Source: Raillietiella orientalis (Eukaryota). Taken from it: 64,000 nucleotides of DNA. The stretch covers positions 9,982,001 through 10,046,000 of the forward strand of contig JAYWIR010000001.1 of NCBI GenBank assembly GCA_036172245.1, read 5' to 3'. The first letter of the stretch is position 1. Every line of letters starts with the position of its first letter. This document shows, piece after piece, positions 9,101-48,500 of the stretch. Position numbers and translations under genes: made by a program. Under the pieces are notes generated by a model. The model saw nothing but the letters and a program-made list of their open reading frames with translations, did not search any database and was not told the DNA's origin.

Positions 9101-12100
9101 TTCCCCTCCCCTCCCTGTTTTCTTTTTGCAGGCCTTCCCGGAATCATGGGATTTCCCGGAGCTCCCGGCCTTCGCGGGCGGAAAGGTATCGAAGGGGATT
9201 CCGGACAGCCTGGGAAGGAAGGAGCCGAAGGGGATAGAGGACTCAAGGTGAGTCTTCTGGTGGGTGATTTCTGATCGACCGGGCTCTCTCAGGGACCTCG
9301 AGGAGACGTGGGGTTCCCCGGAGTTCGCGGGGATTACGGGGACTTCTCTCCCGTGGGGGACAAGGGAGAACAGGGAGATTCCGGTAAGCGACGTGGGAGG
9401 ATGGCGGGGAACCCATGACCTCCTTCACCCTATTCCAGGACCGCAAGGCTCGAAGGGGTACCGGGGGTTTCCCGGAACAAAAGGATGGAAGGGTGCTCCC
9501 GGAGATCCCGGACGGACGCTGGTCTCTCCGGTCGACATCAAGGGCCAGCAGGGAGAGAAGGGTTTTCCGGGAAGAAGCGGAACTCCGGGGGCACAGGTAA
9601 TCCTGCAGGGGGGAGGGGACTGAGGTTGGAGAGGGACCTTCTGTCGCAGGGGTTCCCTGGAAGTCCCGGATTCCCTGGGCTCAGGGGAGAGAGGGGCGAC
9701 GCGGGAAACGACGGCATTCCCGGAAGGAGGGGCCTCCCAGGATTCCCCGGCCCCAAAGGGAGGCAGGGAGACTTCGGTGATCTTGGAGAATCCCAAAAAG
9801 GAGAGTCAGGAGACGAAGGCGAACCGGGACTCATAGGGAATCCAGGTCTTTCCGTCGCCCTCCAACCGCCCGTTCCCTAATTTTCCCGTTCGGGGAAAAA
9901 AATCAGGAATTCCCGGAGACAGAGGCTATCCCGGAATGCAAGGAAGGCCCGGTGACCGGGGATCCAAGGGAGAAGAGGGAGAGCCTGGATATCCCGGCAC
10001 CGCCCAGCTGGGAGTCAAGGGCAGCCACGGGGACCCCGGACCACAGGGGAATCCTGGAGATCGGGGAGAGCGGGGAGAACCAGGACTTCCCGGCCTGTCC
10101 ATGCCGAAGGTAAGAGGTGGCAGGGGCCGGTCGGCGCCCGACCCGAAGCGTTTCAGGGAGCAAAGGGGGAGCCAGGAACGTACGGGAGACCAGGAATTCC
10201 TGGATTCAAGGGGCTCGTCGGCGAGAAGGGCGACACCGGTCCACGAGGGCTCAGAGGTAAAGGGAGCCTCTCTGGGAAAGATATCCTCCAAGGGTCCGAG
10301 CCCTCTCTGGAGCCCCTCCCTCGGGAGGGGGCAGAGAGGGAGAAGCATCTCCCTCTCTGTCCGGGAGACAGATGGCGCGGCCCGTCGCCAGGAGGGTCGC
10401 CGCCGTCTTTGCCCTGCTGCCAGCTCACCTCCCGGCCAGTCCGGCCTCGGGCCCTGGACAGGAGGAAGGAGGATTTAGGGCGAGAGGGGTGAGGGAAGGG
10501 TCTTCCCTCTCTCTCTCCTCCCCCTGAAGAAGTGGGAAGGAACGAGATTTCACGAGGATTCCGTCGCAGGTGTCAGCGTGAAGGGAGAGCCCGGAGACTT
10601 TGGGAACCCCGGGCTACCCGGGCTGGACCAGAAGGAGGGCCCTCCGGGCCAGAAAGGTGTTCCTGGAGAGTACGGCCTTGATGGCCCCCCCGGACAGAAG
10701 GGCACCCCCGGGATCCCATCGATCGGCCCGAAGGGCATCCAAGGGGACCCAGGTGAGTCAGCGTGCAGTCCCTTCCAGTACGGACCCTTCCCTTCCGCCC
10801 AGGTTCCCGAGGACTTCCGGGGCCTCCTGGACTCAGAGGACTGCCCGGCTTCGTTGGGAAGAAGGGCGTCGCCGGCTCAAGAGGGAAGGAAGGATCACAA
10901 GGACGAGAGGGCTTTTCCGGGTAAGAAAGGTCGGGACGGCGCGCGCGAGAACGCCGGGAGGTTCTCGCTTCCCTGAAAGACTCCCACCGACGACGTGTCG
11001 GCTTCCTGGTCGGGGAGGAACAGCACCAGGAAAGCGGGAGCGTCCCGTCGCCGGGGGGCAAATGAAGAACTCGGAACAGTCCGGCGCGTCGCGTCCCTCT
11101 TCGTGCACTCCCGTCACTTCTGGCCCCACGTCAACCCTCGGCGCCAACTGCTCGTCCGCAGCTCCTCCTCCTCTCCCCCTTCCCCTCACCCGCCCAGTTT
11201 GCACGCACGCCGCCGACTCCTTCCCCGAATCTTATCCCGGTGCGCTTCCCTCCGCGGGGCCGATCTGCCGCTCATCTCGACCGACCCCGGTCGGGAACCT
11301 TGCGTCCAGAAGGGTTGTGGGTCCTCACTGCCTCTTTCATCCAGGAGAAAAGGCGAGAGAGGAGCTCTTGGAGTTGCTGGATATCCCGGAGCAGCGGGCG
11401 TACCTGGCCCGACCGGTGATCCGGGTCCTCGCGGTTTCGACGGTTTCCCCGGCGAGCAGGGCCTGCCTGGAGACACGGGAGACTTTGGCATCCCCGGACT
11501 CACCGGCTTCCCAGGAGAGAAGGTGAGCCCTAGTGGCTCTCTGGGCCCCGGCCCACCTTCCCTGCGCTTTTCAGGGGTGGAAAGGAGACGATGGGGATCC
11601 TGCCCCAATAAATCTCCTTAAGGGAGAGAAGGGCGACGTAGGAGAGAGGGGCTTCCCAGGTGAGCGCGGGCAAGAAGGGTCGTGGGCCTTCCAGAGATCA
11701 GGGCCGAGGGATCGGAGAGCGGCACCTCCCCTCCTGAAAGGTCATCCTTCAAGAGAGGGCCAATTTACGAGCCCCTCGCCCCGACTAGGAAGCGGAGGGG
11801 GGTAGTGTGCTCATCCTCCTGACCACGGTCTTCTCGAAGGACCTCCCGGCCTTCGCGGTTTGATGGGTCTTCCTGGCCCTGACGGCCGGCGCGGAGACAT
11901 CGGCGATCAGGGAGACTCGGGACGCGAAGGAAGCAGAGGCCCTCCAGGGCGCTACGGGGAGAAAGGAGAGGTCGGGTTTCCCGGCCCGAACGGTCCTCGC
12001 GGCCCGAAAGGTGACCCCGTGCCCTCTGGCATGCTCTCTCCGTACCTCTGACCGCAACTGTGCTCAGGCATCCCGGGAATGATGGGAGACGACGGCCCCC

Positions 12101-23700: not shown

Positions 23701-24996
23701 GCGGGAGGTGGACTCGCGGCCCCATTCCAGCGCCCCCATCTTCACGCTCCCATCCGTACGGCACCTGTCAGTAGAACGAGGCGTCCGCAACCCCGAAGGA
23801 ACGAGCAGCACTTCGCGCCCCCAAGCTTCGACCCGCACCTCAGGGCATGGATCGCCAAGCGCGCCGCCCACCGAGTGGAGTGGAGGATCTCGGCTCGGAG
23901 CAGTTAGCATCGCCGCGTCTGGGAAACCCTCTCGTGAGAAGAGCGGGAGTTGCGGGTCCCCTTGGACAGCCGGGCGCAAACGCGCCCCGGTGGGCAGTGT
24001 CGATCCTGTAAGGAATCTCCGCTTGAAGAGGTTTCCATGGGGAAGGAGGGAATTGGGAGTGGATGACCTCGACGCAGTCGACCGTGGGAGGCATCTTCCT
24101 TGTCCGAAATCCAGGGCCTCCTCCCTCTCACGCGCGCGCCAGATTCAGTGTGAGTATCGGGGTGTGCGCGCACTGCAGATCGCGACCCCGTTGCGCAATC
24201 CACTGCCTAATGGACACCGCGGATCGCCCAACAGCACTGCGCGCACGAGCAGGCTCGGCTGAAGGTGTGCCCGGTGCCTTGGTGCAGCGGGCGCGACGGC
24301 AGAAATGAGCATCACGTGACCTCGTTCCGGTACAATCTTGAGCGGAGGTCGGATTGCCTTGCGGAGCATCAGCCATTCTTGAGCTGGAGAAACCGGCTCC
24401 TTCTTTGGGATCCGTCCCTCGGGAGACCTAGAACGGATGGTTTAGAGGCTGGTAATGAGGATTCTCAGTCTCGCAGCAGACAGCTCGCCCACACGCAGCA
24501 GTCACCACAGAGCGCTCCCGCATCGTTACTGCGTCACGAGGATGGCCGGCGAATTGAGCCGCAGGACACGCGACCTCTGGGAACATCGAGCGACCAACAA
24601 GTTACCTGACCACCAAAGCGGGCATCTGTGAGGAAATGAAGATGAGAACCTTTCGAGAAGGCCAACTGGACCCGCTGACCAAGGTCGCCAACCTCTAGGG
24701 GATCCGAAAGGTGAACCCCGTTAGCTGTTGACGCGACTACGTGGAAGACAGATTTACCACCGAACGCTGAGGATGACCTCCTGGTGCCTTACCATGGAGG
24801 CATCCTGGGTGGCTCCAGACTGAAATACTGGACTGGCAAGTTCTGTGGAGTCTTATGGAGACAGAAACTTTCAAGGCCCGTGGAGACAGGTTAAACCCGG
24901 CTCCACGTTTTCACCTGCCCGACTCTGTGCCAGGATTGAACGACGCCGAAGGCGGTGACCGGCCTGCAGGCGAGCGCGAAGACGGAGGCCTCGACG

Positions 24997-26600
24997 TTTT
25001 CACCCGGTCAAGCCGGGGCGTTTATTTAAAAACTTTCGGTATTTGCGGTACAAGGCCCCGCTGCGGCCAATAAAACATAGGGAGCTGCCGGGTTGTCGGT
25101 ACACAGACCGACTTGACACTCCACGTCAGCGGAGGGGGATGGGGAAAACAAAAATAAAAATATAGGAAACTGAAAACACAAAGCCATAGTTCTTTGGAGG
25201 GCCGGGAAGGGATCACTGTCTGATGCGTAGAGTTTCCATCCTTTGCAGGATGCCGACGAGGTCCTTCTGCAGATTTCCCAGGTGGGGCCATCGCGTTGCA
25301 GGGAAGACCCCAGTGCAACAACAGCAGCGCCGTTTCCTGCCACTTGAGGGGGAGTGTGGATGCGTCTCTGAATAACGGGGGCCACTTTAGGTCATCCAAC
25401 GGGATGCCAAGCAGCTCGCCACATCTCTGGATTCCTCGCGGGAGAACGCTTGGGGTCGCGGCGTCTGCCAGTTCCCTCATGGTCCACCCACTTAACTCCT
25501 TCTCCTTGCCCGCTATCCGGCAGGTGACTTGCCACCTCGGTTTCCGGCTGTTATGAAGCGCCCTTCTCAGGAAGGTCAGCGCCGTGGCCAGTGGGGTCGT
25601 CTCCGCCCACGTGCTTCTGGCGGGACACTCGATCATGTTCCGCAGCATGCAGCGGGTGTAGATGCCGGGACGCCGAAGGTTGCAGGATTCTCCACTAGGC
25701 TGGTTTAACTTCGCCCACGTGACAACTGTTTTTTCCAGCCATGCGCTGGAGTTGAGGGGGCTGTAGATCATCCACGCATTCTCCTTCGCCAGGGTGGCTA
25801 TTCGTCCGAGGAGAAGGCCGCATCTTCTTATCTTCCTTCCACGACATAAAAGATGAGATGCAAGTCCTCCCGTTCCGGATACACGTCTGGCGAGGAGGCG
25901 GGCCGGAACACACCAAGGGGTGCTCCACAACTTCGCTGCGATGGCCAAGGTGCGCCATCGCAGCTGGATTTCCAAGCGCTCCAGCGTCAGGAGGCCTAGA
26001 CCACCATCTCGACGCGGAGCGCACAAGTCCATCAAAGGGACTCGGAGCCTCCCCTTGCCCCAAAGGGCGATGCGCAGGAGGTCCTTTGTCCTCTTTTTTA
26101 TCCCTGGACTTGCGCTCTTCGACCGTCTTCCCTCTCTGTGGGAAGGCGCCGTCGGCTCTGGGGCATTTTGCGTGGAAAGGGGGAGGGGAATGCACAGGCA
26201 AACCAGGCGAAGGTGCAGCTCGCCGGTTCCCACGCCTCAGCGATCGGGGTTTCAGAGACGCAGGCAGACCGTCTTCCCTCACGCGAGAAGACGGGAAGGC
26301 AAAAAATGAAGGAGAGGGTGTGGGTGCGGTCTTGGCGTCCGCATCGCCACCTGTCAGAAGAGGACCGCGAAAAGCGGTCGAGACGACGGGTGCGACCCCT
26401 CCCACGAGTTCCGCTGCCAATGCATGCGATGCCAGCTGGGAGAAGGGGGGGGGGTGACCGAAGACTTCTCGCACATCAAAAAAAGAAGAGCTCCCTTCTT
26501 TCAAGCCCCATAACTCCCACGTGGCCGGAGGGAGGAAACGGCACGGCATGAAGTTCGGGGAGCCGGGATCTTCCTGGACCACAGCATCTGATGAGGCGAT
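24997..26600 (-). mobile_element. L1/Tx1-like retroelement, 3' portion (copy A), internally deleted
   Basis: ORF 25022-26233 gives ALWGKGRLRVPLMDLCAPRRDGGLGLL...LPLKWQETALLLLHWGLPCN. An RT-start-like peptide DPGSPNFMPCRF lies near 26550. The conserved 3' terminus reads AATAAACGCCCCGG-CTTGA-CCGGGTGAAAA on the minus strand. Confidence 0.85.
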
Positions 26601-26689
26601 GGATCAGGCGATGGAGCTCTCCGCCTCGGAGGCGAGACTACGGGCCAGAGTGGAGAAGTAGGAAACGGGCGGGATGGGCTCTGCCAGGG

Positions 26690-28155
26690 CAACGGGCTCG
26701 CTCCCAGAAATTCATCTTCCTGGCGGAGCAGCGTGCGAACCTCCTCTCTCTCCCTCCCCCCTCTCCTCCTTCTCCCTTTGCTTTTTGTTTGCCCCACTCC
26801 GGAGAGGATTAGAAAGCGGACGAAGGACCTCATCAGGACCGCTTTTTGTGCAGTCCATGTCGGGACGGTGGTCTCGGCCTCCTCATGCGGAGCCACAGCA
26901 GCTACAGTTGTGGACGCTCGCCTTTGTGACGAAGTCGTGGAGCACCACCTGGTGCGACCTCGCAACTCATTCTCGTCCAGCAGGTCACCGAGAGCATGGG
27001 ACTCCTGTCCTTCCTTGCGCGCTGTCGACGCAACATCTCCCGCTGTGGACTGCAGCTTCGGCGAGTGGCTGCGCTCACCAGGATCAACAGCTGGATCTTC
27101 CGCCGCCCTGCGGACGGTAATGCCTGGTTGCAGGAAGCCGCCCGCGCGTGTGCGAGGAACCAGGGGACATGCACGGGACAGACACAGCGTTCGCTGAGCT
27201 GTTTCCATAACAACAGCTCGCTCCGGGAGATCGCGAAACACCCTCTGAAGTGTGCGTGGGCAAGAAGAACCACCCTTGTTGCAGCGCTGCTCTACCTGAA
27301 GAAACACTTGGGCAGAAGCCTTCCGGCTAGATGGAAGGTTACTGTGAACATCTGTGGAAGAAGGAAGGGACTAGGCATGTGGACGACGGACCAGCTTACA
27401 CTGCGACTCCGAGTGACTCACTCCAAAGACTTTGGCGTTGAGGAGAGCTACTAAGGAAGACCTCCAGAGACCTCCAGTGCTTCTGGACAAACGTACCCTC
27501 CCATTAAAGTGGCAGGAGTCCGCATTGATGATGATGCTGCACTGGGGCTTCCCGTGCAACGCCCTCCGGCATCACTGGACACGGTGTATATGTGGACCGC
27601 AGCTATGGCAGGTGCGGGGAGAGCGATCCCTCGAGCACCTGCTTGTGGGATCGTGTTGCCTTCCGCTCCCTCTGGGAACCCCTTGCCGCGACCCTAGGAA
27701 CCCCCGGCAGCAACTTCAGGGACTCCCTGAAACCCCTCCTCTCTCGCGACGCACTTCGGCCGGCAGTCTCGCCAGCAGCCCTCTGCTGCCTACGCGAGGT
27801 TGAGGAAGTCTGGAGCGACGCAAGGGGAGGGCGGAGCGACAGGAGAGCCACATCCTCTTTACCGTCCGCTTCCTGAGGATGGCAACGGAATGCCCCCCAC
27901 TGTACAATTCCATGAGGCAAGAGCTTGCAGGCATCCACCAAAGGATGCAGACAACCACCCCCAGCAGGACATGACCCCTACCCGCACACCCTCATAGTTT
28001 ATTTATTTTGATTTTCTATCCTGTTGTTTGCCCCATCTCCCCTGGTGCCGGGGTGTACCTCACCGACCCACGAACCGGTAACCCGGCAGGTTTCCGTTAA
28101 ATTACACGTGGTTTGACCACCGGTCCAACCACAGAGACTGTGGTTGAACCGGTTC
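26690..28155 (+). mobile_element. L1/Tx1-like retroelement, 3' portion (copy F), opposite orientation to copy A
   Basis: PLLFVCPTPERIRKRTKDLIRTAF, LPLKWQESALMMMLHWGFPCN and C..RGERSLEHLLVGSC (zinc-knuckle-like), followed by a degenerate version of the family 3'UTR stem-loop at about 28040-28090. Confidence 0.8.
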
Positions 28156-28501
28156 ACTCGTCTGCGCACCTCTGTCCGCACCTTGTCGTCTTCCAGGCTC
28201 CCGCGCGCGGCTCCGCCCTAGCATCAAGAAATCCCTTTCTTTTACGGAGGATCTCAGCGGCTGAGCGACTGGGACGGGTAGCGGAATCCGTGGTCAGTCC
28301 GGAACAGACTTACACTGTCCCCGGGCGAACCATGGAGGCCAACCTGTTCCTCGCCAGCACCTTTTGGCAGTTGCAACAACGCGAGGCTCAGCTAGGTCGG
28401 GGGAGTCCTGGACTCTCCACTGACCGGGGGGAGGGAAGCCAAGGGGAGAAGCGTCTTCCGGAGCCCTTGCGGTCACAGTCGATCTGCGTGAAGCTTTTCG
28501 A

Positions 28502-29422
28502 TTTTCACCCGGATTTCTCCGGGTCGTTTATTAAAAAATAAACTACAGTAAAAATGTCAGCGGCTGCAGCAATGCTGTAGGCAAGCACGAAGAACCACGG
28601 AGCCTGCCAGGTCACCGGTTCGCAGACCGGTACGGTCCACCACGGCAGCAGGGGGGAAGGGGGAAAGATAAAAAACTAAACAAAAAGAAAAAAAGAGTGG
28701 GAGGGTACGGGAAGGGATCATTGTTGCTGCTGGGGCCGCATCATCCTTCTCAGGATGCCGGCAAGCTCTTGCTGCATTTGAGGGGATCCAGGTGGGGCCA
28801 TAGCGACGCCCTCCTCAGGAATTGGGAGGCGAACTGGATGGCATCCTTATCGCGTGGTCCTCCCGTAGCCGTGCTCCATGCGGCGACGATCCCGCGAAGG
28901 CAGCACAATGCTGCTATCGAGGCCGCTGGCTGAAGGACTTCGGCAACGAAGAGGGCTTTCAATGCGTCCCTGGGGTTGCCACAGGGGATACCGATGGCCG
29001 CGGCAAAGAGGAAGCAAATGGGCCGAAAGGCAACACGATCCACTAAGAGGTGGGGGAGGGACTCCCGTTCCCTTCACCTCACACAGTTGGGATCGACCGC
29101 TCCCCAGGTCCAGTGGTGTCGGTGGGCGTTGCAGGGGAATCCGCAGTGCTGCAATAGTAGAGCCGACTCCTGCCATTTTAAGGGGAGGGTGGAAATGTTC
29201 ATAAGAACCGGGGGTCACTTCAGATGTTCAATCGGAACATCGAGCAGCGCTCCCCAGCGCAGAAGTCCATTGGGAGGCGTACTCGGGGTCGCAGCGTCTG
29301 TTAACTGGCCCGTCTTCCACTCTCCCTGCTTCTTCTCATTCCCGAAGATTTTTATCCTAACCTCCCACTTTGCCGCAACATCGCTGTTTTGATCTTCTAC
29401 TAGGGAGGCCAGCGCAGCAGCA
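28502..29422 (-). mobile_element. 5'-truncated L1/Tx1-like copy B with 13-bp target-site duplication
   Basis: Family 3' terminus at 28502-28532 and C-terminal ORF remnants (CGNPRDALKALF...ALCCLRGIV). Flanked by GTGAAGCTT(T)TCGA at 28488-28501 and GTGAAGCTTTCGA at 29423-29435. Confidence 0.9.
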
Positions 29423-29435
29423 GTGAAGCTTTCGA

Positions 29436-29922
29436 TTTTCACCCGGATTTCGCCGGGGCGTTTATTGTAAAATAAACATTTACAAAGACGTGCGGTGGCT
29501 GGACCATTGCTCCAGCCACGCACGAAGAAACACAGAGCCTGCCGGGTCACCGGTTCACAGACCGGTACGGTCCACCACGGCAGCAGGGGGAAGGGGGAAA
29601 AAACAAAAACAAAACAAAAAGAAAAGAAAAAACTGGGAGGGTAAGGGAAGGGATCACAGTTGCTGGTGGGGCCGTTGCATCCTTTGCAGGATGCCGGCAA
29701 GCTCCCTCTGTATTCCTGGATCCAGGTGGGGCCATCGGGACGCCCTCCTCAGGAACTGGGAGGCTGGCTGGATGGCACCCTGGTCGTGTGGTCCTCCCGT
29801 AGCCTTACTCCAGGCGGCGACGATCCCGCGAAGGCAGCACAGGGCTGCTAACGAGGCTGCTGGCCGAAGGGCGTCGGCAACGAAGAGGGCTTTCAGTACG
29901 TCCCTGGGGTTGCCGCAGGGGA
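29436..29922 (-). mobile_element. 5'-truncated L1/Tx1-like copy C with 13-bp target-site duplication
   Basis: Family 3' terminus at 29436-29466 and CGNPRDVLKALF...ALCCLRGIV. Flanked by GTGAAGCTTTCGA at 29423-29435 and 29923-29935. Confidence 0.9.
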
Positions 29923-30740
29923 GTGAAGCTTTCGACTGCGTCGACCAGGATCTCCTTTTGGAGCTTCTGGAACACATGGGATTTCCGGCCGTCTTCCTGG
30001 CCTACCTGCGCTCCTGCTGGCGCTTCGCGTTTATTAACATTAATTTCAGCGGCCGGCATGTGTACGGCGTGCCGGTTCGTCGCGGCATCCTGCAGGGTGA
30101 CAGCCTCAGCCCCCTGCTCTTCAGCATCTTCTTTGAGTTGGTGCTGAGAGCATACAGGGAGACTTTGGCAACCCTGCCGAGCTCATATCTCGGCACGCCT
30201 GCCGTGTCGGCCTATGCCGACGACCTTCTGCTCCTGCTCCCCAGGTCCACCCCGGCATGGGCGCTCGAGGATTTCTTCGAGTTGCTGCGCCGTGGGACAG
30301 GCCTCGAGGTAAACAGGGAGAAGTCGTCGATCATTGAATCGGACTCGTCGCGGGCAGGACGGTCGGACTGGATTCGGTTGGGGATCCCCACGGGCGGGTA
30401 TATCAAGTACCTCGGCGTTCTGTTGGGGGACTTCTGCATCGCAGAAGCCTGGTCCGACCGTCTCCAAAAGGTGGAGTTGGCGATCGGCCCGTTCCGGGAC
30501 GGCAAGTTCTACTTGCAGGAACGGGCTGCGGTGTGGAACGCCTTTGCGACCCCCCTCCTTCGCCCCCTACTTTTTGTGTGTCCCGCCCCTCCCCAAATTA
30601 GGACAAGGACAAGGGGCCTCATAAGAAAAGCCCTCTGGGGCAACCGGAGGCCCCGCGTCCGGCTTAAAGACTTGTGCGCTCCACGCAGGGACGGTGGACT
30701 TGGTCTCCTGACGTTGGAGCGGATGGAAACGCCGCTGAGG

Positions 30741-31550
30741 TTTTTCACCCGGGTGAGCCGGGGCTTTTATTACTAAAACTTTTTACAAGAAAAAAAATTC
30801 TATAATAAAGTCCTTTTCTTTTCACTGTTTTGAATGATTTTTTTCAGCCGTAGCACGTTCCGACTGTCTTGGGGCACTTGTCCTTGCCGACCCGTAGACC
30901 GATAAAGTCCTCCACATTGGCGCAGGGGCGGGAAAAATACAAATAAAACAAAAAAAAGAAAAACGCCTGGGGGGGAAAATGTTTTTTGGGAGGGGAGGAA
31001 AGGGAGGAGATCACGGTACGCCGCGAGGAGGCCTCTGCATCCGGTTTAGGATGCGAACAAGTGCCGGTAAATGTTTTTCAAGTCAGCGCCAACGGGAAGC
31101 CTTCACCAACGAGATGACTACCAAGTGGATGGCATTCCGACTGCTGCGGCCTCTTCTTGACGCGTTCCACTTGTCCAATATTCCTCGTATGCAGCAGAGA
31201 ACTTCAACACACGCGGCACCTGACACGCAGTTCCGCATCAGGAGGAGACGAAAAATAGTTTTAGGGTCGCCCACAGGAACGTTTAGTGCCGAATAGGATC
31301 GATCGCACGTTCGGCGGAGCGCAACACATTCGATGAGTAAGTGGGAGAAGGTCTCCCTTTCCCCGCACTCTGCACAATTGGCATCCACACTCCCCGATGT
31401 CCAGTGAGACAGGAGTTCTCTGCTTAAAAGTCCCCAATGGAGCAGAAGCAATGCCGTCTCCTGCCACTGCAGGGGAAGGGTGCTGTTGTCCCATGACTCT
31501 GAGGGCCACTTCACCTCCACCGGAGGCATGTCGAGCAGCTCGCCCAGCGT
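30741..31550 (-). mobile_element. 5'-truncated L1/Tx1-like copy D (divergent subfamily)
   Basis: ORF 31083-31529 gives LPLQWQETALLLLHWGL...CAECGERETFSHLLIEC (CCHC finger). The 3' terminus reads AATAAAAGCCCCGG-CTCAC-CCGGGTGAAAAA. It truncates the host RT ORF just after GGLGLLTLERMETPLR. Confidence 0.85.
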
Positions 31551-32237
31551 GCAGTCCAGACCGAGGCCACCGTTCCAGTGCTGGCAAAAGGGGAGGAGGG
31601 GTTAAAAGGGGAAAGACGAGATCACGATGAAGGGTTGCCTAGGAGCTGCCCGGCAGGCTGGGAAAAGATACGGGGAAAGGTGGGAGGAAAGGGAAAGGTG
31701 AGCAGAAGCTGCAGATGAGCATTTCGAAGGTAAAGGGTGGAGGGAACGCGGGAACGCATCTTCACGGGATCTGCGCTACCCTGGTGACCCCGATCGGTGG
31801 TGGCGGAGGAGGCGCTTTCTCCTCCACCACGCATCTCCGAAACATCGGGATCCTCTCCTTCGCGGGACCGCGGCAATCCCCCGCTTACGCTTTGCTGCCC
31901 TCTGCCGGCAGCTTCCCGCCAGCGGAAGCCGCGGGCGAAGGCGCGCCGGCGCGGGGGAAGAAGCGTGCCGGACTTTTCGCGTCGTTGGCGTCGAAGGGTG
32001 TCCTCCCGTCTGGAACGCACGAGATCGAGGACCCAGCGGCGGGCGCCCCGCTGCGGACGGTCGACCCTGAAGCCAGGCACGTCGCGAACACCTTCCGGGA
32101 CGTACGGCGACGAGCGCGCCACCACGCGAGCCCGGACCCGGCGCCGAGTTTCACTTTCCTCGCGCTTTCCCGCACCGATGCGCGCGCGCTGAAATTCATT
32201 GCAGCTCCTGACGCGGGCTCGGTCTCGAGGTGAGGTG

Positions 32238-32441
32238 TTGTCACCCGGGTACGCCCGGAGCGTTTATTTAAAACTCTACAAACGTGGTACGAGGCCCCAG
32301 TACGGCCATGGACACCGGACCTGCCGGGACGCCGGGACGCAGCCCGGCGTGACTCTCCTCGGCAGTGGAAGGGGATGGGGGAGAAAACAAAAATAAAAAT
32401 AAAAATGAGAAACAAAAAGATTTTGGAGGGAGGGGAAGGGA
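32238..32441 (-). mobile_element. 204-bp 3'UTR-only retrocopy (copy E) with 13-bp target-site duplication
   Basis: Family stem-loop and terminus are present. Flanked by TCGAGGTGAGGTG at 32225-32237 and 32442-32454. Confidence 0.88.
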
Positions 32442-32648
32442 TCGAGGTGAGGTGAGGGGAGGCTGCGTTGGCGGGGACGTCTGGAAGCGGGAGCGAAACG
32501 AGAAGTTTGAACGGAGGAACGTCGTCACCAGGGTCAACGCGATCCGTCCCCACGCTTGGTTTCCAAGCAGGCGACTTACGACCGAGGAATCCGACTGGGG
32601 CTTGTGCTCCCTTCTCCCCCCCCCCACTCGGGGAGGAGGAAGAGGAAG

Positions 32649-32818
32649 TTTAGAAAATCCAAATGTTCGCGACGTGCCGCGAGAAAGTACGCGAGTCGTC
32701 TATTGTTTCCAAGGGCAACAGTGTTCGGAGCATTGTTGCCGAACACAACAATGCTGTTTCCCGGAGGTAAAAATAGAATTCGACACTCCGCTGCATGCTG
32801 GAGGGCAGGAGCGCAGCG
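32649..32818 (+). repeat. Direct repeat copy 1 (partner at 35551-35768)
   Basis: Shared blocks TTTAGAAAATCCAAATGTTCGCG, CCAAGGGCAACA, AACACAACAATGCT, AAAATAGAATTCGACACTC and CAGGAGCGCAGCG. Confidence 0.85.
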
Positions 32819-35550
32819 GACCTCGCTTTTCTGCTTTGGCACGTGGGCGCTTCGGCGCCGAGCCGAGGCAAAAGAGAGCGTCTTCTGGGAACAAGAGGCT
32901 TCTCGTGGATATGCGGCAGAGGGAAAACTCGGCCGCATATTCGCGAGAGGTGCGGAGCAGCTCGGCTTTATCGGCTTGCACGATTTCCCGTTCCCGCGCC
33001 GTGGGCAGTTGCTGGGGTAGTCCATCACCGGGCACTTGGCGAGCGTTTCGACGAACATGGGGAGGGGGAGGGGAAGAAGCAAAGAAGAGAGAGAGAGAGA
33101 AAATGTATCCCATTTGCGACAGGTGCGTCTCCCTAGAACGCATATCCTTCAGCGTACACCCGCGCGAATACACTGCATACGGACCACGCGCCCAGTCGGC
33201 CGCAGGTGTCACTTCAACTGCGAATCCAAATTTAGCACGGTGGGGGAAGGGGGGAAGAGGTTCACGGGAAAAGGAAGCGCTTATTGCGGCCGTCCGCCGC
33301 CGTCCACGCGGGCAAACGGCCTTTTTTTTTTCATTTCACACGCCGGCCGTTTGCGAAGGCGACCTTCGCGGCTTGTCCGTTGGGCACGTACGGAAAAGGC
33401 GGAAACCAAACACACAGAAGAGGAAGAGGGAAAAAAAACAGTTTTCACTGCAGTTAATGATTCGCTTAACATCGTCGGCAGGGAGAAGTTTTCGGATGCG
33501 GCTCCTCCAGCAGGGGCGGTTCTTCGCTTTGCGGTTTGGCTTCGCGGGCGGAGCGGGAAATGTGGCGCAAGTCTGGAAGGATCAGCACTTTGTGAGAACT
33601 CGAGAACGGGTCGCGGAATGCGTCGGCTCGGGGATTTACCGTCGGCTGCCTGGGTAACGTCCTATCTGGTCCGTTGAACTGACATTATTTGCACTCGGCT
33701 ACTGGGATGATTCCTTCTTGCTCGCCTCCATGTTTCTTTAACCCGGCTTCGTTACAACTTTTATTTTTGTGTGCAGAGCGAGTTGCTTTGGAAGGAAGCG
33801 CACGACGGATGCTTACGTCACGTCGAACAGCCCTGAAGCAAACAAATCATGCAGGCGCGGGTCACACAAGTACACTATAAGGCACGACGCGAGTATGAAG
33901 ATGCGAGTTCGAAGACGCGCACTGCTGAGGTCCAAGACGGCGTGCCACCATTTTGTTTCCAGTTCACGACATTCCATGTACTGTCGAAATGTACTGTGGT
34001 TGTAGCGTATGTACAGCAGACTCGCGGGTAAATTCTCAACGGATACTACACCCCACCAGCAGCTTCTCTTCGTCATGTTTTTTCACCAGTAGTTATGGGG
34101 AGCGCTGTAAATTAAGTTTCTGGCAAAATAAGTGCCAAGAGTGTGTAGCGGTTTGCGTGTTTGAAGGGTATTGCAATGTATAAGATGTAAACGGCTCGCA
34201 AATGTGTTTAGCAGAAGGATGTAATGAATTCCAGAAGTGCGATTCCTCTGCGTCGTACGCATCAGAATGGAAGAGGCGAGTCAAAGAACGCAGTACCGTT
34301 TTGTACACGTGTATAAGAGTACCGTAATGTTTTCGGCAAACACTAAATGAGCCCGTGTTTATTTACTCTTTCCGTTCTTTCAGCGCGCGAGCTCAGAGCT
34401 ACGGGAGCGAGGGGGCTGCGCGCGTTTCGATCGCGCAGGATGTCTTTTGTCTCACGGAAGAGTCTAGAAGATTTCCCCGCTGCAGAACGAACCTCTAGCG
34501 AACTCGACGGCAACCGTTTGGTTCGTTTCCACGTGGGGGTTGGAATTCCGTTGTGCATGGGAACGCGATTCATAACAAATTCGGTCGCTTAATGGCTCGG
34601 GAGCTTCCCATCTATTATTTCTGATTTCATGGTTTTCTACGATCGCTCCGCGTATTTTCCTTACATCAGGGGAAAACGCGAGTCCAAGGCGGCATCCACG
34701 GCTTTGTGATTAAGAGGGGATCACGTGCATCTAATGTAAAAGCGATTCCTGTATGCTGGGATCCACGTGGAATGCATCCCAAAGAGGTGGCTGCTTTGGA
34801 ATGGAACAAAGATAAGCAGATGGTGGAAAAATTCGCTTCAAAGAGATCTGACGACGCAAGAGAAGCATTCCGGGAGATTGTGTAGTCTTCGCCGGTTCCT
34901 GTGCTTGCGACCAGATGTCTTCATCCGATCTCAATTTGTGCTCGAATCGATTTCCTTGGGGAATCGGATTCGGAAGTCACTCGGGGACCTCTGACCTTTA
35001 AAGGGTGCTGCTGCCCTGTGCTGCTTCAACTTTGCTTTTAATTTCGGAAATGCAGGAAACTTGGCTGAGCTCTGCAGCATCCGAGCGAACCAACTGTTGC
35101 CAAATAAATGGAAGCCCTGCCCTCGTAGGCTAACAGAAAAGGTAAAACTTGCAAAGAAATTCGATCCTTCCAAGGGGTTAACTAGGGGGAGCATTCGTGA
35201 GACCGTGTCAACGAGCGTCTCCTCCGAATTGCAGGCCTCCCCAGCGAACAGACTGCATCGTGGTTTATTGCCGTGAAAAGTGTGATGGGAACTGCAGCGG
35301 GGTAGTACCGCTGAACGAAGCGACTCTTCGCTTCCACGCTGGGATTCACCGGGAGCACGGACGAAAGTTTTAACACGTAACCGTTGGCAACTTATATGAT
35401 GCATGTTGAGTGGCGATATCTAGGAAAGATACACATCGAGTCGTTGGTGTTAAAACCTGCCTCCCGGTTAATGGACGGGCGAGAGAGAGGAGGAAACAAA
35501 GAAATAGACAAACGTCAGCATTTAAAATGTAGAAGCTAAATTTTTTTAAA

Positions 35551-35768
35551 TTTAGAAAATCCAAATGTTCGCGGCGTGCAGGGAGAAAGCACGCGCGTCG
35601 CTGATTGTTCCCAAGGGCAACAATGTTCTGAACACAACAATGCTAGCACGCAGCAGAGTGTCGAATTCTATTTTCATCTCCGGGAAACTCACAACAATGC
35701 TCTGGGTTTCCAGGAGATGAAAATAGAATTCGACACTCTGCTGCGCGCTAGTGGACAGGAGCGCAGCG
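35551..35768 (+). repeat. Direct repeat copy 2, containing a 46-bp-arm inverted duplication
   Basis: Same blocks as 32649-32818, plus fold-back arms 35643-35688 and 35706-35751 (44/46 complementary). Confidence 0.85.
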
Positions 35769-38700
35769 TAGTTTTCTTTGGGCTTGTGCCTTTTTGTTTT
35801 GGCGCCTCTCTCTGGCTCCGTTCTTCCTGTTTCCTAGCGACTCGCGGGGTGCACGAAAGCGGAAATCCTGACAAGGGTTCGCTCAGGCACAAGTTTCGCG
35901 ACTGCCGAGGGACCGGAGAAGGTGCGCGTGGATGCTTCCGGTCTAGCGAGACCTTTGTGGGATTTCAGCATCTGCGCGTCTCCTCCTCGAGAAGAAGGAA
36001 AACCTGGGGAGAAGAAATCAAGGTCCCCTCTACGCCTTCTCGTCGTCTTCGTAGCCATGTCCGCGCCGGCAGTGCTCTTCCCTCCCCACTTCCACCTCGA
36101 TGAAGGCGCTAGTTCTCAGAGTGGCTGCCTGAAGTCTATGGGGGAAAGCTCTGCGCCCCAGGAAGCCCGGGCGCCGGTATGCACGGATGTCAGACGTGCC
36201 TTCGATGCACTGCGGGGGTTCTGCAAACCAAGAGGACGTGTAAGACCCCTGGATCACCCAGGTCACGCTTTTCCCCTATCTCCCCTCCGTCGCCTACTCC
36301 CTGCAGCCAGTCTCATCGCTGACGTCATGAGATCGTCGCCCAGGCGGCGACCTGGTAACGGTCTTTCTCGGTGTCCGGGTACAGGCGCAATTCCAGGTCC
36401 AAACACTATAGAGCGGGAAGGGCATCCATCGCATCGGCAGTTTTCGACTTTCCCAGGGAGAAGTTCGGTTTCTTTTCGAGATATCTGGCCAGTGGCTGCC
36501 CCGAGGTCGTAACCGAAGTGCCCTCCGTGGCTCTGTGTGAGCGAGCCGGGATAACCCTACCAAACGGGCATCGTGTTCCTGGCCGTCTCAACGACGGCTC
36601 CTGGATAAGCCGCTCTGGATCGGTTCGTCATGTTGGAGTTTCCCGAACGCCCCAGATGGGATAGGGAAGGGAGAGAGCAGCGTTCCGCGTGGACGCCGCC
36701 GGAGCAGCGACCATGCTGAGTGCTGCGGCCGACCCTCGACTTTAGCGAAGCCACGGTGGGGTTTCTGTGTGCAGCGTGGCTCCCGAGCCAGGGGCCGATC
36801 CTGCGCAGAGCTACCTGCAAACACAGGAACGAGGCCGTCATTCCGGAAGAACCACTGGACCCCAACTTTCCAGCTGCCACCTGTCCTTTCCTGGATCGAG
36901 GCACAGTTTTCGAAGCGCCTAAGGACGAGGAGTAACCATGGAGACGAGGGATCTAGGCGGCTCGGTGGATGGGGTGGGTGCCCCCCCGAAGTCTGTGACC
37001 CCTCCCTCTACAGAAGCAGATCCCTGGGGTCCTGCAGGAATTCTAGGGTCAAGAAGCGTGCCCGACAGACTCCGAGCCCAGCCATTTCACCAGGGGCTGA
37101 AGAGGAGTCTCGAAATCTCTCGCCCCAGGCCCATCTGGCTCGAAGACCCTATCGTAAGATTCCTCTTGCCCAGGGGACAAGGCGGGCAGTTTGATTTGAC
37201 GATTCCCGGCCGTCGGACGCGCAGGAACGCTCGGTGGATTCTCGGAGGGTGCGTTGGTGACGCTTTTTGTATGCCCCAGTGCTACGGAGGTCGACTTTTA
37301 CCGTGACCCAGGAACGGCGTCCATGACTGGCGTCATGCCTGTCGTGACATGCCTTTCGTCCGTCCCTCGAGGCGGGAAGTGCCGGATCGAAGGCAGGGGA
37401 AGGAGGGAGAGATGTGAGTCCCCAGTAGGGGCTAAGAGACACCGCTGTCTCTGTCCCCTCGTGAGAGGCCCGCAGGGGATGACTTTTGGCGGATGAGTGA
37501 GCGTTTCCTGCAGATGGAGACGTCTCTCTCCATCGCTCACTGCGTAGCACCCTATCACCTCCTTCCCCGTCCGCTGACTGAGCCCGTCCTCTGTTCAGGA
37601 GCATTTCAAGAGAGGGAAGCAATGGAGCTCGTCGCGACGCAAGTGACGTCAATCGGTCCTTTGCGCGCGGAGCGGTTCCGCGAGGCGCTCCAGCGTTTGC
37701 CGCCAGCCCTTCCCGCGGATGTGGAAGTTCCGGTCTGTGGAGGACCGCTCTCGCGACCTCTGCGTCTTCGCCGTCCCAGCGGCGAAAGCGCAGCATTGGA
37801 GGGAACGTCCTGGGATTAATGAGCTCGGGCGGCCTTTCTACTCCGCCCCCACATACGTCTCAAGAAAAGCGAGCTGTGCTCTGCTCACTAAGACTCCGGC
37901 GAATCGGCTGCTCTTCATAATCGCCAGCCGGCGTTCCCAGCCCTCATTTCTGTCGACGTTCCGTCTTCTCGGAGCACGAGCAGTGCAGGTGTTGCCGGCT
38001 CTGATCACCCAGGAACCGTGGGAGGGGGAGCTCGAGGCAGTCACCACCAAAGATTTGGATCAACGCCGCTTTTTACAGTCACCACAGGAAGTTTGATGCA
38101 TCCAGAATGCCAGAACTCAAGGATCAGCAGAGTTCAATACTGACTTCCGACAGGATTTTCCTCCAGGGGATGGCTGCTCCCCTCCTCCTTGGCCTCCCTT
38201 ATCGGCAGACTTTGCTAGAAAGCAGGGAGGCATCCAAGATGTCGTCCCAAAACCTCTCTGGCGCAAAAGTCCTGACAGCTCGACATGGAGGAAGCGTCCA
38301 AGAATGCGGAAATGAATGCCCGACAATGCTCAAGTCTTCTACAATGCAAGAGCTTTCCTATCAGATTGCCGCTGCAACGACCATGCTGGAGATTCCCATC
38401 CTCTCTTTTCATCTTGGAGGATCCACTGATGCACCCGGATCCCCGGACGCGCGTGCAGGTTGCCAATGATAGGGAAAGCAGAGGGTAGCTCGGTTCCCTC
38501 GTCTGCAAGAAACCAGGATCTTCTTGCGATCACCGCCCCTTTGAAGAGCACCTCACGACAATGCCCATGGGATCCGTTCCCAGGACTCGTCCCGTCTCCT
38601 CACCCCTATCCCGCCACGGATGTCGTTGCAATCATTCCGTGCAGCTTGCAACGCTCTACCTTCATCCCGTTTCCTGTTTCTCCCGCACTCATTCCTTACT

Positions 38701-45500: not shown

Positions 45501-48500
45501 TACGGTTTCGTCACAGCCTGAGCGCTTCCAGTGGATTTCATTTCATGAGGGTGCCAACAATAAAAGGGCGCCAAGGCGAACGCGCGAGCGTCAGCAATGA
45601 AAGGGTGGCGCAGCAAAAAGTGAAAACCAACAGTGCTCAGAGATGCACGAATTAGCACAACTTTATTTTTAATTCCTCCGCCAGCGGCCACTCGCTTCAG
45701 GTGCTTCAGCGAGTGTCGCGAGAGCTATTGGATTACGGATCCCTGGATCTCCGGAGACGCGCGCGCGGACTCTCTCCAGAGCTGCTGCTTGCTGGAGTCA
45801 CGTGACTGGCTCGCTGAATCCCTGGACCCTTTCAGTAAGCGCAAAGGAAAAAGTTGCTTGTGCCGGATGGAACGCGCTCGAGAGCTCTCCAAGGCGCCAT
45901 GGTTTTCCGATCGCCCCCTTTCCCCCCTCCATGCTCCTGTCGCCGGTTTCGAAACCAGCTCCACCCCCTTCCCCCACTCCTTCCCCCTACGAAGAGCGAT
46001 TTCCTTCAGGCCGACTTCCTTCTGTGCGAGTCGCTTCGAGCGTACGGATGGAATTTCTCCTTCATTTCCCCGCACCCCTTCCCCAGCGCGCTGCTGATTT
46101 TGTCTTATTTACAGAGTTCGGGAGCATTGTCCTGCTCGTCGCCCTCAAGGAATCTTCATCGTCCCCCTTTTGCGGCGCTCTCGATGCGGAAGGGGAGGCA
46201 ATGATTCCCCCTTCCCGCGAAAGTTCCTCCGTGCCCCCCTCCCTCCTTTACCTTAATAGGCTTGGCAGGGGGCACATAATGCGCGGAATTCCACGTCTAC
46301 CCACCGGGTACCGCTCTTCGTCGAGATACGCGCCGAAGGGGACAACGGGAACAGTTGGCGCGCCAAAGCAGACGTCGGAGAGCCGCTCGTGGCTAAGGCG
46401 ACGGAGGAGAGCTCCCGCCACAGCTGCTCTGGCCGCGGCCCGAGGTGCCTCGCCTCTCGGAACTTCCTTCCGAGTGGATGGGAGGCTGGGATACGGTGCT
46501 CCCAGTCACCCACCTCCCGGGACACGTGGAGAGGATTCCATGCTTGTGGGAAGGAGCGCCACTCTCTGGAGAGGAGACCTCTCTCCTGCCAGAGAGCTGG
46601 GCTCGCCGTCAGCGCGAAGAGCATCCGGAACAGCTCCCTCCCGGTCGCGGGACAGGACGCGGAAGGGAGCAACCGTCTGGAGAAAGGCGGGCGAGTAATC
46701 CCTCGTTGCTCCCGGGGGCAGTGCGTTCCCCTCCTGCGGTTTCGCGGGAGCCAGCAGGCCGCGAAAGGAGGACACCCGCGGCGATGCCCCGAAGCCCGAT
46801 TTCCTGTTCCGCTCCAGGGAAGCTTCCGGGAAAGGAACGAACGTGGCGCACGATGACTGCCCGTGAGAGGCTCCTCCCCTTTCGCTTAACTCGGGACATC
46901 CCGCGCTTGCCAGAGGCCATCTTCCTTCGAGCAGTGGAGTTTCCCGCACGGCGTCCGAAACGTGACCTTTCCTTCTCCCTCAGTGGAACCAAAGAAAGGG
47001 AAAACAAAAGCAGCGTCCTTAGGCGCCGCCTCGTTTCCTTCTGAGGTTTCTGCGCCGCTATGGCGCCCGCTGCTCTCTGCCTCTTTTCCGTCTTCCCATC
47101 GATCGCTTTCGGGCCCGGAGGATCGACGGAAACCACGAATTCCCTGTGGCGATCACTGCGGGCGCGCAGCCAGGAAGCTTCCCTCCCTCCCGTTTCCCCA
47201 GTGTATATTCCTGATCTCCTGCCGAGCAGCACATCCAGGTAACGCCCACCTTCTCACCAGACCTACGGGATCTCCCCTTCCCGAAGTCCGGAAGACGGTG
47301 ACCGCTTGACCCCACAGCCTCTTCTGGGATCTCCCCGCGACCTCGGAGGGAAAAACTCTGCCTCCTGCAACGCACAGGCTGTTGCCAGGCAACCAGGTGA
47401 AAGCAGGGGCGAGTCTCACCGACGAGTCTGATCAGCAGACCCGCACCCTACCCCCGTCCAGCTTCTTCCCGGCTTCTTCCCCGCTCCCCCTTCGTTCTTC
47501 TCACCGATCTGCTTCCTCCCCTACGACCGGCACCCGCCCCACACCACCACGTGCTCTTTTCTCCCCAAGGTCTGTTGCGGGATGCCCTGCATCCGGGTCC
47601 ATTCAGGGGGGGGCTGCCGTTCCTGCGAGCGGCCCCGAACGCGCCAGCTTCCCGGGACCACGAGTGACGCTTTCCCGACGGCGGCAGCGGCGGCTCTGGA
47701 AGGATCTCCGGAGCGCCGCTTCGGGTGGCCTCCAGCACCCCTTCGAAGCGGAGATGCCTTCGGGTTGTCGGTGCCTTCGAGCAAGAATGGGCCCAGGTTT
47801 GTCAGGTAGTGGGACCGCGGAAGAGAGCGGACCGTCACCCCTAGAAGCGGGGGAAGGGTGGGACCGGGACGGGGCACGCGGAAGGTCATCCCCGTGGATC
47901 GCTGTGTGACGGGGAGCGGCGCTCCCGGCTCAGTCCCTCGCGATCGTGACCAACGATGACCAGCTCGACGACGACGACGACGAAGAGAAAAGATGGGGAC
48001 GGAGAGGAGGGGGAGAACGAAGGCGAGAGGGGAGAAGAGGAGGAGCACAGGAAACGGGCCGCGTCCTCCTCGGAGAAACCGCAGAAGCAAGGTCTTTCGG
48101 CGTTTCCCAAAAGCATCGGGAATGCCTGTTGTTCCCAGAGGAAGAGGAGGAGCACAAAGGCCGCAAGATGCGAGTGGTCATTCACTTCCGGCGTCTTCCT
48201 CGTCTTCCTGCATTTTCACGAGACCTGAAATCCCTCTCTCCTCTCCCTTTTCCCCGGAGGCGGAAGGAGGCTTCAGGAAGGACGGGGTCCGGAGGACGGC
48301 GCATTATGGATGCCTCTCGGAGGAGGAAATCAAGGAAGACTCAGTTCCGGGAGCCGGTTGTCTTCGTTGCTTTGGCGACAGGAGCGCCCTCCTCCCTGCC
48401 TTCGATATGCAGAGCAGAATCCCCACCCGCGCCTCTGGCCGACCCGAGAAGAGGGGTGCCGACCTTAGGGAGGAGAAGTCGAGGAGAAAACTTAACTTAC

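Follow-up and report, generated by a model that had tools for sequence, protein, structure and literature searches.

Background

Dimers of transposable elements (TEs) that arise by double insertion at one site, with the target-site duplication (TSD) in the junction, are described in part of the study by McGurk and Barbash (2018, PMC5932611). They include dimers of elements that lack long terminal repeats (non-LTR elements) with distinct 5' truncations, and the section on these calls the distinct truncations clear evidence of two insertion events. The same source gives an R1 array with the duplicated ribosomal DNA (rDNA) target between its units, and P-element dimers that form at sites better matching the preferred target. 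In this study, we analyzed a locus of comparable structure in a stretch of 64 kb from Raillietiella orientalis (contig JAYWIR010000001.1, positions 9,982,001 to 10,046,000), hereafter the window. Two truncated copies of a long interspersed element (LINE) family, inserts B and C, are stacked there at a single 13-bp site. The site lies within the reverse transcriptase (RT) sequence of a third family copy, the host fragment H.

Other described systems share parts of this picture. In the retrotransposon hot spot (RHS) genes of trypanosomes, one constant position is occupied by an ingi/RIME element or by several of them, according to a section of PMC7563717 that cites Bringaud et al. (2002). Target-specific LINEs are reported in part of PMC4640811 to be concentrated in the Tx1 and R1 clades and in early-branching groups, and Utopia-1_NVit occurs occasionally in tandem in U2 genes. 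Nested clusters of one LINE family, Zepp, are described for green algae in part of PMC3446292.

Structure of the stacked insertions

Direct reading recovered the three occurrences of a target sequence that a preliminary description of this DNA had listed, together with their coordinates and the extra T of the first one (Table 1). A pattern search allowing at most 1 mismatch recovered the two exact copies of GTGAAGCTTTCGA. The number expected by chance was 0.16, and at least two copies were seen in 2 of 100 shuffles. A search of this kind, which admits mismatches only, cannot list the first target copy, which is an indel variant. All three target copies coincide exactly with the boundaries of inserts B and C, and this is more than the recurrence of a 13-mer.

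Our alignment also agreed with that description on the two inserts, which it had reported as minus-strand, 5'-truncated copies (921 and 487 nt) with a common 3' terminus, different 5' ends, and different sequences. On the plus strand, B and C start alike with TTTTCACCCGGATTTC, the reverse complement of the element's 3' end. Insert C aligned over its full length to the first 487 nt of B, with 407 of 485 positions identical (84%) and 3 gap events. The 5' ends of the two inserts are different, and each is flush with a target copy. The reading frame of B contains two in-frame stops and one 2-nt frameshift, and at the 3' end of B, AATAAA is followed by a GC hairpin and then by GTGAAAA. The junction between the two copies, which have the same orientation, and both outer ends each contain a target copy as long as a TSD, which is the arrangement of a double-insertion dimer.

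The interrupted host fragment

Fragment H encodes an RT of the non-LTR type. The Pfam profile RVT_1 matched 29922-30776 with E = 2.8e-13, starting at profile position 77. Relatives with RVT_1, some of them also with an endonuclease domain of the apurinic/apyrimidinic endonuclease (APE) type, were among the protein matches. The protein collection search showed that H has one close relative, P0001 (619 aa), with 72% identity over residues 231-505; all other matches to the host RT were at most 36% identical. In tblastn, residues 154-237 of P0001 aligned to 28260-28493 and residues 231-505 to 29925-30749, and the two alignments were colinear.

The protein P0001 is uninterrupted across RT motif A (..AVAVDLRKAFDCVDQELLL.., within the longer stretch ..GALAVAVDLRKAFDCVDQELLLELL..). 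Permissive tblastn recovered the left half of H as ..GALAVTVDLREAF, ending at 28498, and the right half as EAFDCVDQDLLL (EAFDCVDQDLLLELL from 29925). The 3' part of H is an open frame of 816 nt. Excision of B, C, and two target copies restores V-D-L-R-E-A-F-D-C-V-D, colinear with P0001, and in this respect the motif had been read correctly at the outset. At 29427-30776, a frame of 449 codons stays open across the antisense of C and on into the host RT; it reads through by chance, and a gene caller could mistake it for a gene.

Measured on P0001, the sequence of H starts near residue 150, and the 3' end of the plus-strand copy E2 immediately precedes it. Every copy of the LINE family in the window is 5'-truncated. 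Endonuclease-coding or N-terminal RT sequence was not found anywhere in the 64 kb, and relatives bearing PF03372 matched through their RT part only. We regard H as a truncated copy that was most likely dead on arrival. Since H was already 5'-truncated, the insertions disabled no working element. The idea that they inactivate the host element is moot for a truncated H in a window that holds neither endonuclease-coding nor N-terminal RT sequence.

Table 1. Positions of the target copies, the inserts, the host fragment, and the other family copies in the window; the last column gives, for minus-strand copies, the plus-strand position of the 3' terminus and the flank before it.
Feature	Position	Strand	Size	Description	3' terminus and flank
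Copy E1	24997-26236 (5' end approximate)	-	~1240 nt	5'-truncated; same type of 3' terminus; flank unlike the others	24997, ..GGCCTCGACG
Copy E2	26766-28150 (both ends approximate)	+		5'-truncated; different 3' end; directly upstream of H	
Host H, 5' half	28260-28487	+		RT domain 2 (..SPEQTYTVPGR..) to motif A (..GALAVTVDLR); one frameshift; tblastn with P0001	
Target copy 1	28488-28501	+	14 nt	GTGAAGCTTTTCGA, with one extra T; direct reading	
Insert B	28502-29422	-	921 nt	5'-truncated; last ~224 codons of open reading frame 2 (ORF2) and 3' untranslated region (UTR)	28502, ..GCTTTTCGA
Target copy 2	29423-29435	+	13 nt	GTGAAGCTTTCGA; direct reading and pattern search	
Insert C	29436-29922	-	487 nt	5'-truncated; last 88 codons (open) and 3' UTR	29436, ..GCTTTCGA
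Target copy 3	29923-29935	+		GTGAAGCTTTCGA; runs in frame into the host RT (EAFDCVDQ..)	
Host H, 3' half	29936-30741	+		RT motif A to thumb; no stop or frameshift; RVT_1	
Copy D	30742-31600 (5' end approximate)	-	~860 nt	3' terminus abuts H	30742, ..GCTGAGGT
Copy E	32238-32441	-	204 nt	3' UTR only; TSD TCGAGGTGAGGTG at 32225-32237 and 32442-32454	32238, ..GGTGAGGTG

Evidence for two insertion events

We consider it very likely that B and C are two independent target-primed insertions at the same site, in the same orientation and with the same 13-bp duplication. The proposal of two independent hits at one nucleotide is supported by the flush 5' ends, by the 16% divergence of the inserts, and by a pattern of differences that points to divergence before insertion.

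The alignment of B with C, 485 nt long, contains 78 mismatches and 3 gap events. The ratio of nonsynonymous to synonymous substitutions (dN/dS) was 0.43 over 83 comparable codons, and a value as low was obtained in 4.6% of 2000 random-mutation simulations. Differences were found at 31 of 249 coding sites and at 47 of 236 UTR sites (Fisher p = 0.027). The three target copies showed one 1-nt insertion and no substitution over 39 bases; had the divergence arisen in place, at 0.09 substitutions per site in each lineage, a complete lack of substitutions would have P = 0.03. With this decay, 0.8% of 5000 simulations left the 816-nt frame of H without a stop or an indel, the premise being that H is older than anything inserted in H. 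It is unlikely that the 16% divergence arose in place, and we place its origin before insertion, in active lineages.

Other copies in the nest

Seven family fragments (E1, E2, H, B, C, D, and E) lie within 24997-32441, a region of about 7.5 kb, and no family fragment was found in the rest of the 64-kb window. Copies B, C, and D lie in or against H, and the flanks of E and E1 have no family similarity. A TSD is present at B and C (13 bp) and at E (11-13 bp, two bases being ambiguous with the element). A TSD was also looked for at E1, D, and E2, and none was found. Copy E is the cleanest single insertion in the window, and its own TSD of 11-13 bp indicates that the family makes duplications of about 13 bp. 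The sequence around E has no RT similarity.

The 3' terminus of copy D (30741/30742) abuts H after ..LERMETPLR without a TSD. The window, including 31600-32237, lacks the remaining ~1.2 kb of H (the last part of ORF2 together with the 3' UTR), which could have been lost by an insertion-associated or a later deletion. A weak zf-RVT match on copy D (23.2 bits) was under the cut-off of 27.5.

Copies E1 (minus strand) and E2 (plus strand) stand head to head, and both are truncated near the same ORF2 region (around ..KRTKDLL..). The 3' end of E2 is followed by the 5'-truncated H, which forms a second tail-to-internal junction, on the plus strand. At 28090-28160, E2 lacks the usual family 3' terminus and ends in a different, longer hairpin (GGTCCAACCACAG..CTGTGGTTGAACC); because of this different 3' end, we assign E2 to a distinct subfamily. 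The plus-strand flank of E1 (24975-24996) reads R-E-D-G-G-L-D and resembles the family sequence RRDGGLG, at chance level (E = 4.3) and with nothing colinear upstream.

The 3' end of the family

The 3' end of the element in B and C reads ..AATAAACG(A/C)CCCGG(A/C)GAAATCCGGGTGAAAA. All five minus-strand copies carry TT(T/G)TCACCCGG.. at the terminus in plus-strand reading. The motif CCGGGTGA(A/C)AA and the terminal hairpin are common to 5 of 5 minus-strand copies, though their overall identity is 47-84%. The layout is AATAAA, 2-3 nt, a 5-bp GC stem with a loop of 4-6 nt, and then GTGA(A/C)AA. None of the copies has a long A tail. Such a fixed 3' end without a long A tail, kept among diverged copies, suggests that the RT recognizes a structured 3' end. 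This common 3' end is combined with variable 5' truncation, with copy lengths of 921, 487, ~860, 204, and ~1240 nt for B, C, D, E, and E1.

One stem pair of a 3' UTR hairpin is changed on both sides between B and C, with pairing retained, a further modest sign that the two diverged in active lineages before insertion. Stem-loops of the 3' UTR are conserved in position (28540-28640 in B, 29470-29575 in C, with counterparts in E1, D, and E), with changes on both sides across the five copies. For example, ACCGGT..ACCGGT in B and C corresponds to GCCGGG..CCCGGC in E. An Rfam search of 24000-33500 gave one match, at chance level.

Proposed course of events

The reading that we prefer, and hold to be probable, is that a related lineage within the family inserted on two occasions into the 5'-truncated, dead LINE-type copy H, both times through a complete target-primed reverse transcription. 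By the established model of this process, applied to the anatomy of the locus, the plus strand would have been nicked after ..CTTTCGA. The 3' OH at the nick would have primed complementary DNA (cDNA) synthesis from the fixed 3' end of the RNA (AAUAAA, 5-bp GC hairpin, GUGAAAA). Synthesis would have halted early both times, once after 921 nt and once after 487 nt. Nicking of the other strand 13 nt to the left would have produced the 13-bp target duplication, and the outcome of both events would be target-B-target-C-target. Because the duplication restores the 13 bp, the sequence that the endonuclease had accepted in the first event would still have been present for the second.

Insert B probably came first, and C would then have entered the target copy on the right. 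There is no difference between target copies 2 and 3, and copy 1 carries an indel; three changes break the ORF of B, and the 88 codons of C contain none. If this order is right, the left flank had been replaced by B before C arrived, so the determinants of re-use would lie within the 13 bp and the right flank. Most likely, the re-used site is a local hot spot in a small nest of family copies, and its position in RT motif A is accidental.

Several points weigh against this interpretation. The age order B then C draws on one indel and three ORF-breaking changes, which is weak evidence. The window offers only four distinct insertion sites, which share no motif, and the endonuclease preference behind the re-use is assumed. 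B and C are mutual closest relatives in the window (84% identity, against at most 64% to any other copy), and a local duplication would give the same result. The statistics for independence are each modest (p about 0.03-0.05) and partly overlapping, dN/dS with the comparison of coding and UTR sites. The assembly is the single source for the locus. Finally, copy D is a third antisense arrival on H, at a distance of 0.8 kb, which could hint at a preference for family copies.

Alternative explanations

The preliminary description had suggested a retroelement that targets the RT gene of its own or a sibling family. Such evolved targeting would mean that the B/C lineage has a sequence-specific endonuclease for motif-A coding sequence, inserts there repeatedly, and builds disabling arrays. 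It would account for two hits at one nucleotide and for the fact that the sole motif-A-bearing copy in the window is the occupied one. A single subfamily supplied both hits, the window's other subfamilies are found at other places, and H also received D. Target-specific lineages of APE-type LINEs are moreover known in the Tx1 and R1 clades, as part of PMC4640811 reports.

The copies in the window argue otherwise. The five minus-strand 3' termini lie at four distinct sites, and only B and C have a flank in common (Table 1); the common flank of a sequence-specific lineage is not seen. Copy E, which belongs to another subfamily, lies with a clean TSD of its own in non-RT sequence, and motif A is intact in P0001, the one further family member known. 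The antisense-C part of the chimeric frame had no match in the protein collection, the host was already truncated so that nothing was inactivated, and no second example was found. The arrival of three antisense copies on H (B, C, and D) is not significant, given that the four sites all lie in a TE nest. Motif A is kept by a single copy in the window, too few for recurrence at this motif to be judged. We consider the targeting of RT genes improbable.

A broader form of the same idea is that the B/C lineage homes to the motif-A coding sequence of its own relatives as a parasite of parasites, with the dimer being one of many such arrays. We give it slightly less credit. Recurrent hits in RT motif A, if true, would mean that a LINE targets the catalytic core of other LINEs, which would be of real interest; nothing here shows so. 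At 3 of the 4 distinct sites (24997, 28502/29436, and 32238), the 13 nt that precede the junction contain the tetranucleotide TCGA, compared with 4% of the 13-mers in the window. Its distance from the junction varies and the pattern was noticed post hoc, so it is a lead only.

Two random insertions could have fallen on one nucleotide by pure coincidence, in a case picked from a very large scan. The very many windows scanned call for a multiple-testing caveat, and no target motif can be demonstrated. However, by our own arithmetic, 10 copy pairs x 1/64000 positions x 1/2 for orientation gives about 1e-4 for the window, and the cut geometry would have to match on both strands as well. In Drosophila, double insertions are found at sites closer to the preferred target than those of single insertions, according to a section of PMC5932611. 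Coincidence would be an explanation of small probability, similar to that of targeting.

A single insertion could also have been followed by tandem duplication of the target and the insert, with a 434-nt deletion that trimmed one copy and 16% divergence in place. The preliminary description had named, as observations that would speak against independent insertion, that B and C are each other's closest relatives and that their junction is explained by local tandem duplication. The first of these holds, since B and C are closest to each other among the six copies compared, and they also stand head to tail. The second is disfavored. The 434-nt deletion would have to stop exactly at the target boundary. 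The low dN/dS, the lower divergence of coding than of UTR sequence, the lack of substitutions in the three target copies, and the still open frame of the older host all disagree with divergence in place. We regard the duplication as decidedly unlikely, and two separate insertions into H remain our preferred explanation.

An assembly artefact, in which two paralogous loci with one insert each were chained or a repeat was mis-joined, would find some favor in the nest of related repeats, but it is very improbable. The longest exact junction repeats, ~20 nt (target end plus start of the 3' terminus) and 14 nt, give a mis-join little length to work with, and the inserts are 16% diverged. Chaining, moreover, leaves in place the need for two same-site insertions in paralogous hosts.

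Three further candidates were rejected. A single event with template switching does not suffice because the third target copy requires a second staggered cut. Retrotransposition of a pre-formed dimer would presuppose an identical target at the source locus. Re-use caused by microhomology of the primer end with the 3' end of the RNA was dismissed because the full terminus follows the target in both copies.

Relatives in sequence collections

The 3' terminus pattern gave 0 matches in genome contigs and 0 in metagenome contigs. The protein-guided locus search gave 111 pattern matches in metagenome contigs and 32 in genome contigs, and none was confirmed. The antisense-C part (residues 1-166) of the 449-aa frame had 454 candidates in the protein collection, none of them significant, and the 88-aa C-terminus of C had 564 candidates among longer proteins, again none significant. 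A full HMMER scan with the 88 aa of C gave 2 matches, P0023 (87 aa, 63% identical) and P0024. The latter is a repetitive protein with a weak match, probably spurious.

Among the copies in the window, P0023 is closest to C (62.5%) and then to B (57.6%). The proteins P0023 and P0001 are each alone in their own cluster. Each comes from a 2870-nt contig, so they may belong to one element. The nearest named matches to the host RT were at most 33% identical. These results describe a poorly known LINE family, for which the protein collections searched hardly contain a relative, and with a defined, structured 3' end that lacks a poly(A) tail.

Window context

The window is rich in GC (about 60%), and the observed/expected ratio of CpG is 0.86. 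The ORF at 8312-9274 encodes collagen triple-helix repeats (Pfam E = 4e-26), and for the ORF at 48304-49737 the Pfam match is to a carboxylesterase domain, with E = 4e-17. Two copies of a short repeat unrelated to the family (32646-32829 and 35548-35779) are 81-85% identical, and a near-perfect palindrome of 109 nt lies at 35643-35751.

Comparison with known systems

The seven fragments in 7.5 kb resemble the Zepp and Zepp-like clusters, in which 5'-truncated copies of one LINE family are piled up, here in a small nest. The scope differs: the part of the Zepp report considered here concerns one cluster per chromosome or a link to centromeres, whereas our data cover one window of 64 kb. The trypanosome RHS genes are a protein-coding repeat family with LINE-type elements at one position, flanked by the two gene halves, as at H. 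In the section on RHS genes, however, the pattern recurs over many gene copies, whereas it was seen here at one locus.

The LINEs of the Tx1 and R1 clades and Utopia share with our locus the precise re-use of one nick site. In the portion of the literature cited for them, essentially all of their copies have the same flank, whereas the five termini described here occupy four sites.

The closest likeness is to the TE dimers formed by double insertion, as part of that survey presents them. In both cases, copies stand head to tail, the target duplication is in the junction, and differing 5' truncations mark two events. The present case differs in that the units are 16% diverged and come from distinct sources, the site lies in the RT of a dead relative, and there is no expansion past the dimer. 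Double-insertion dimers are proposed seeds of TE-derived satellites, and the locus is a clean case, at the sequence level, of LINE target-site re-use with both events still legible. Overall, the locus fits the known double-insertion dimers, and its particular features are the diverged source elements and the site in the catalytic motif of a dead relative.

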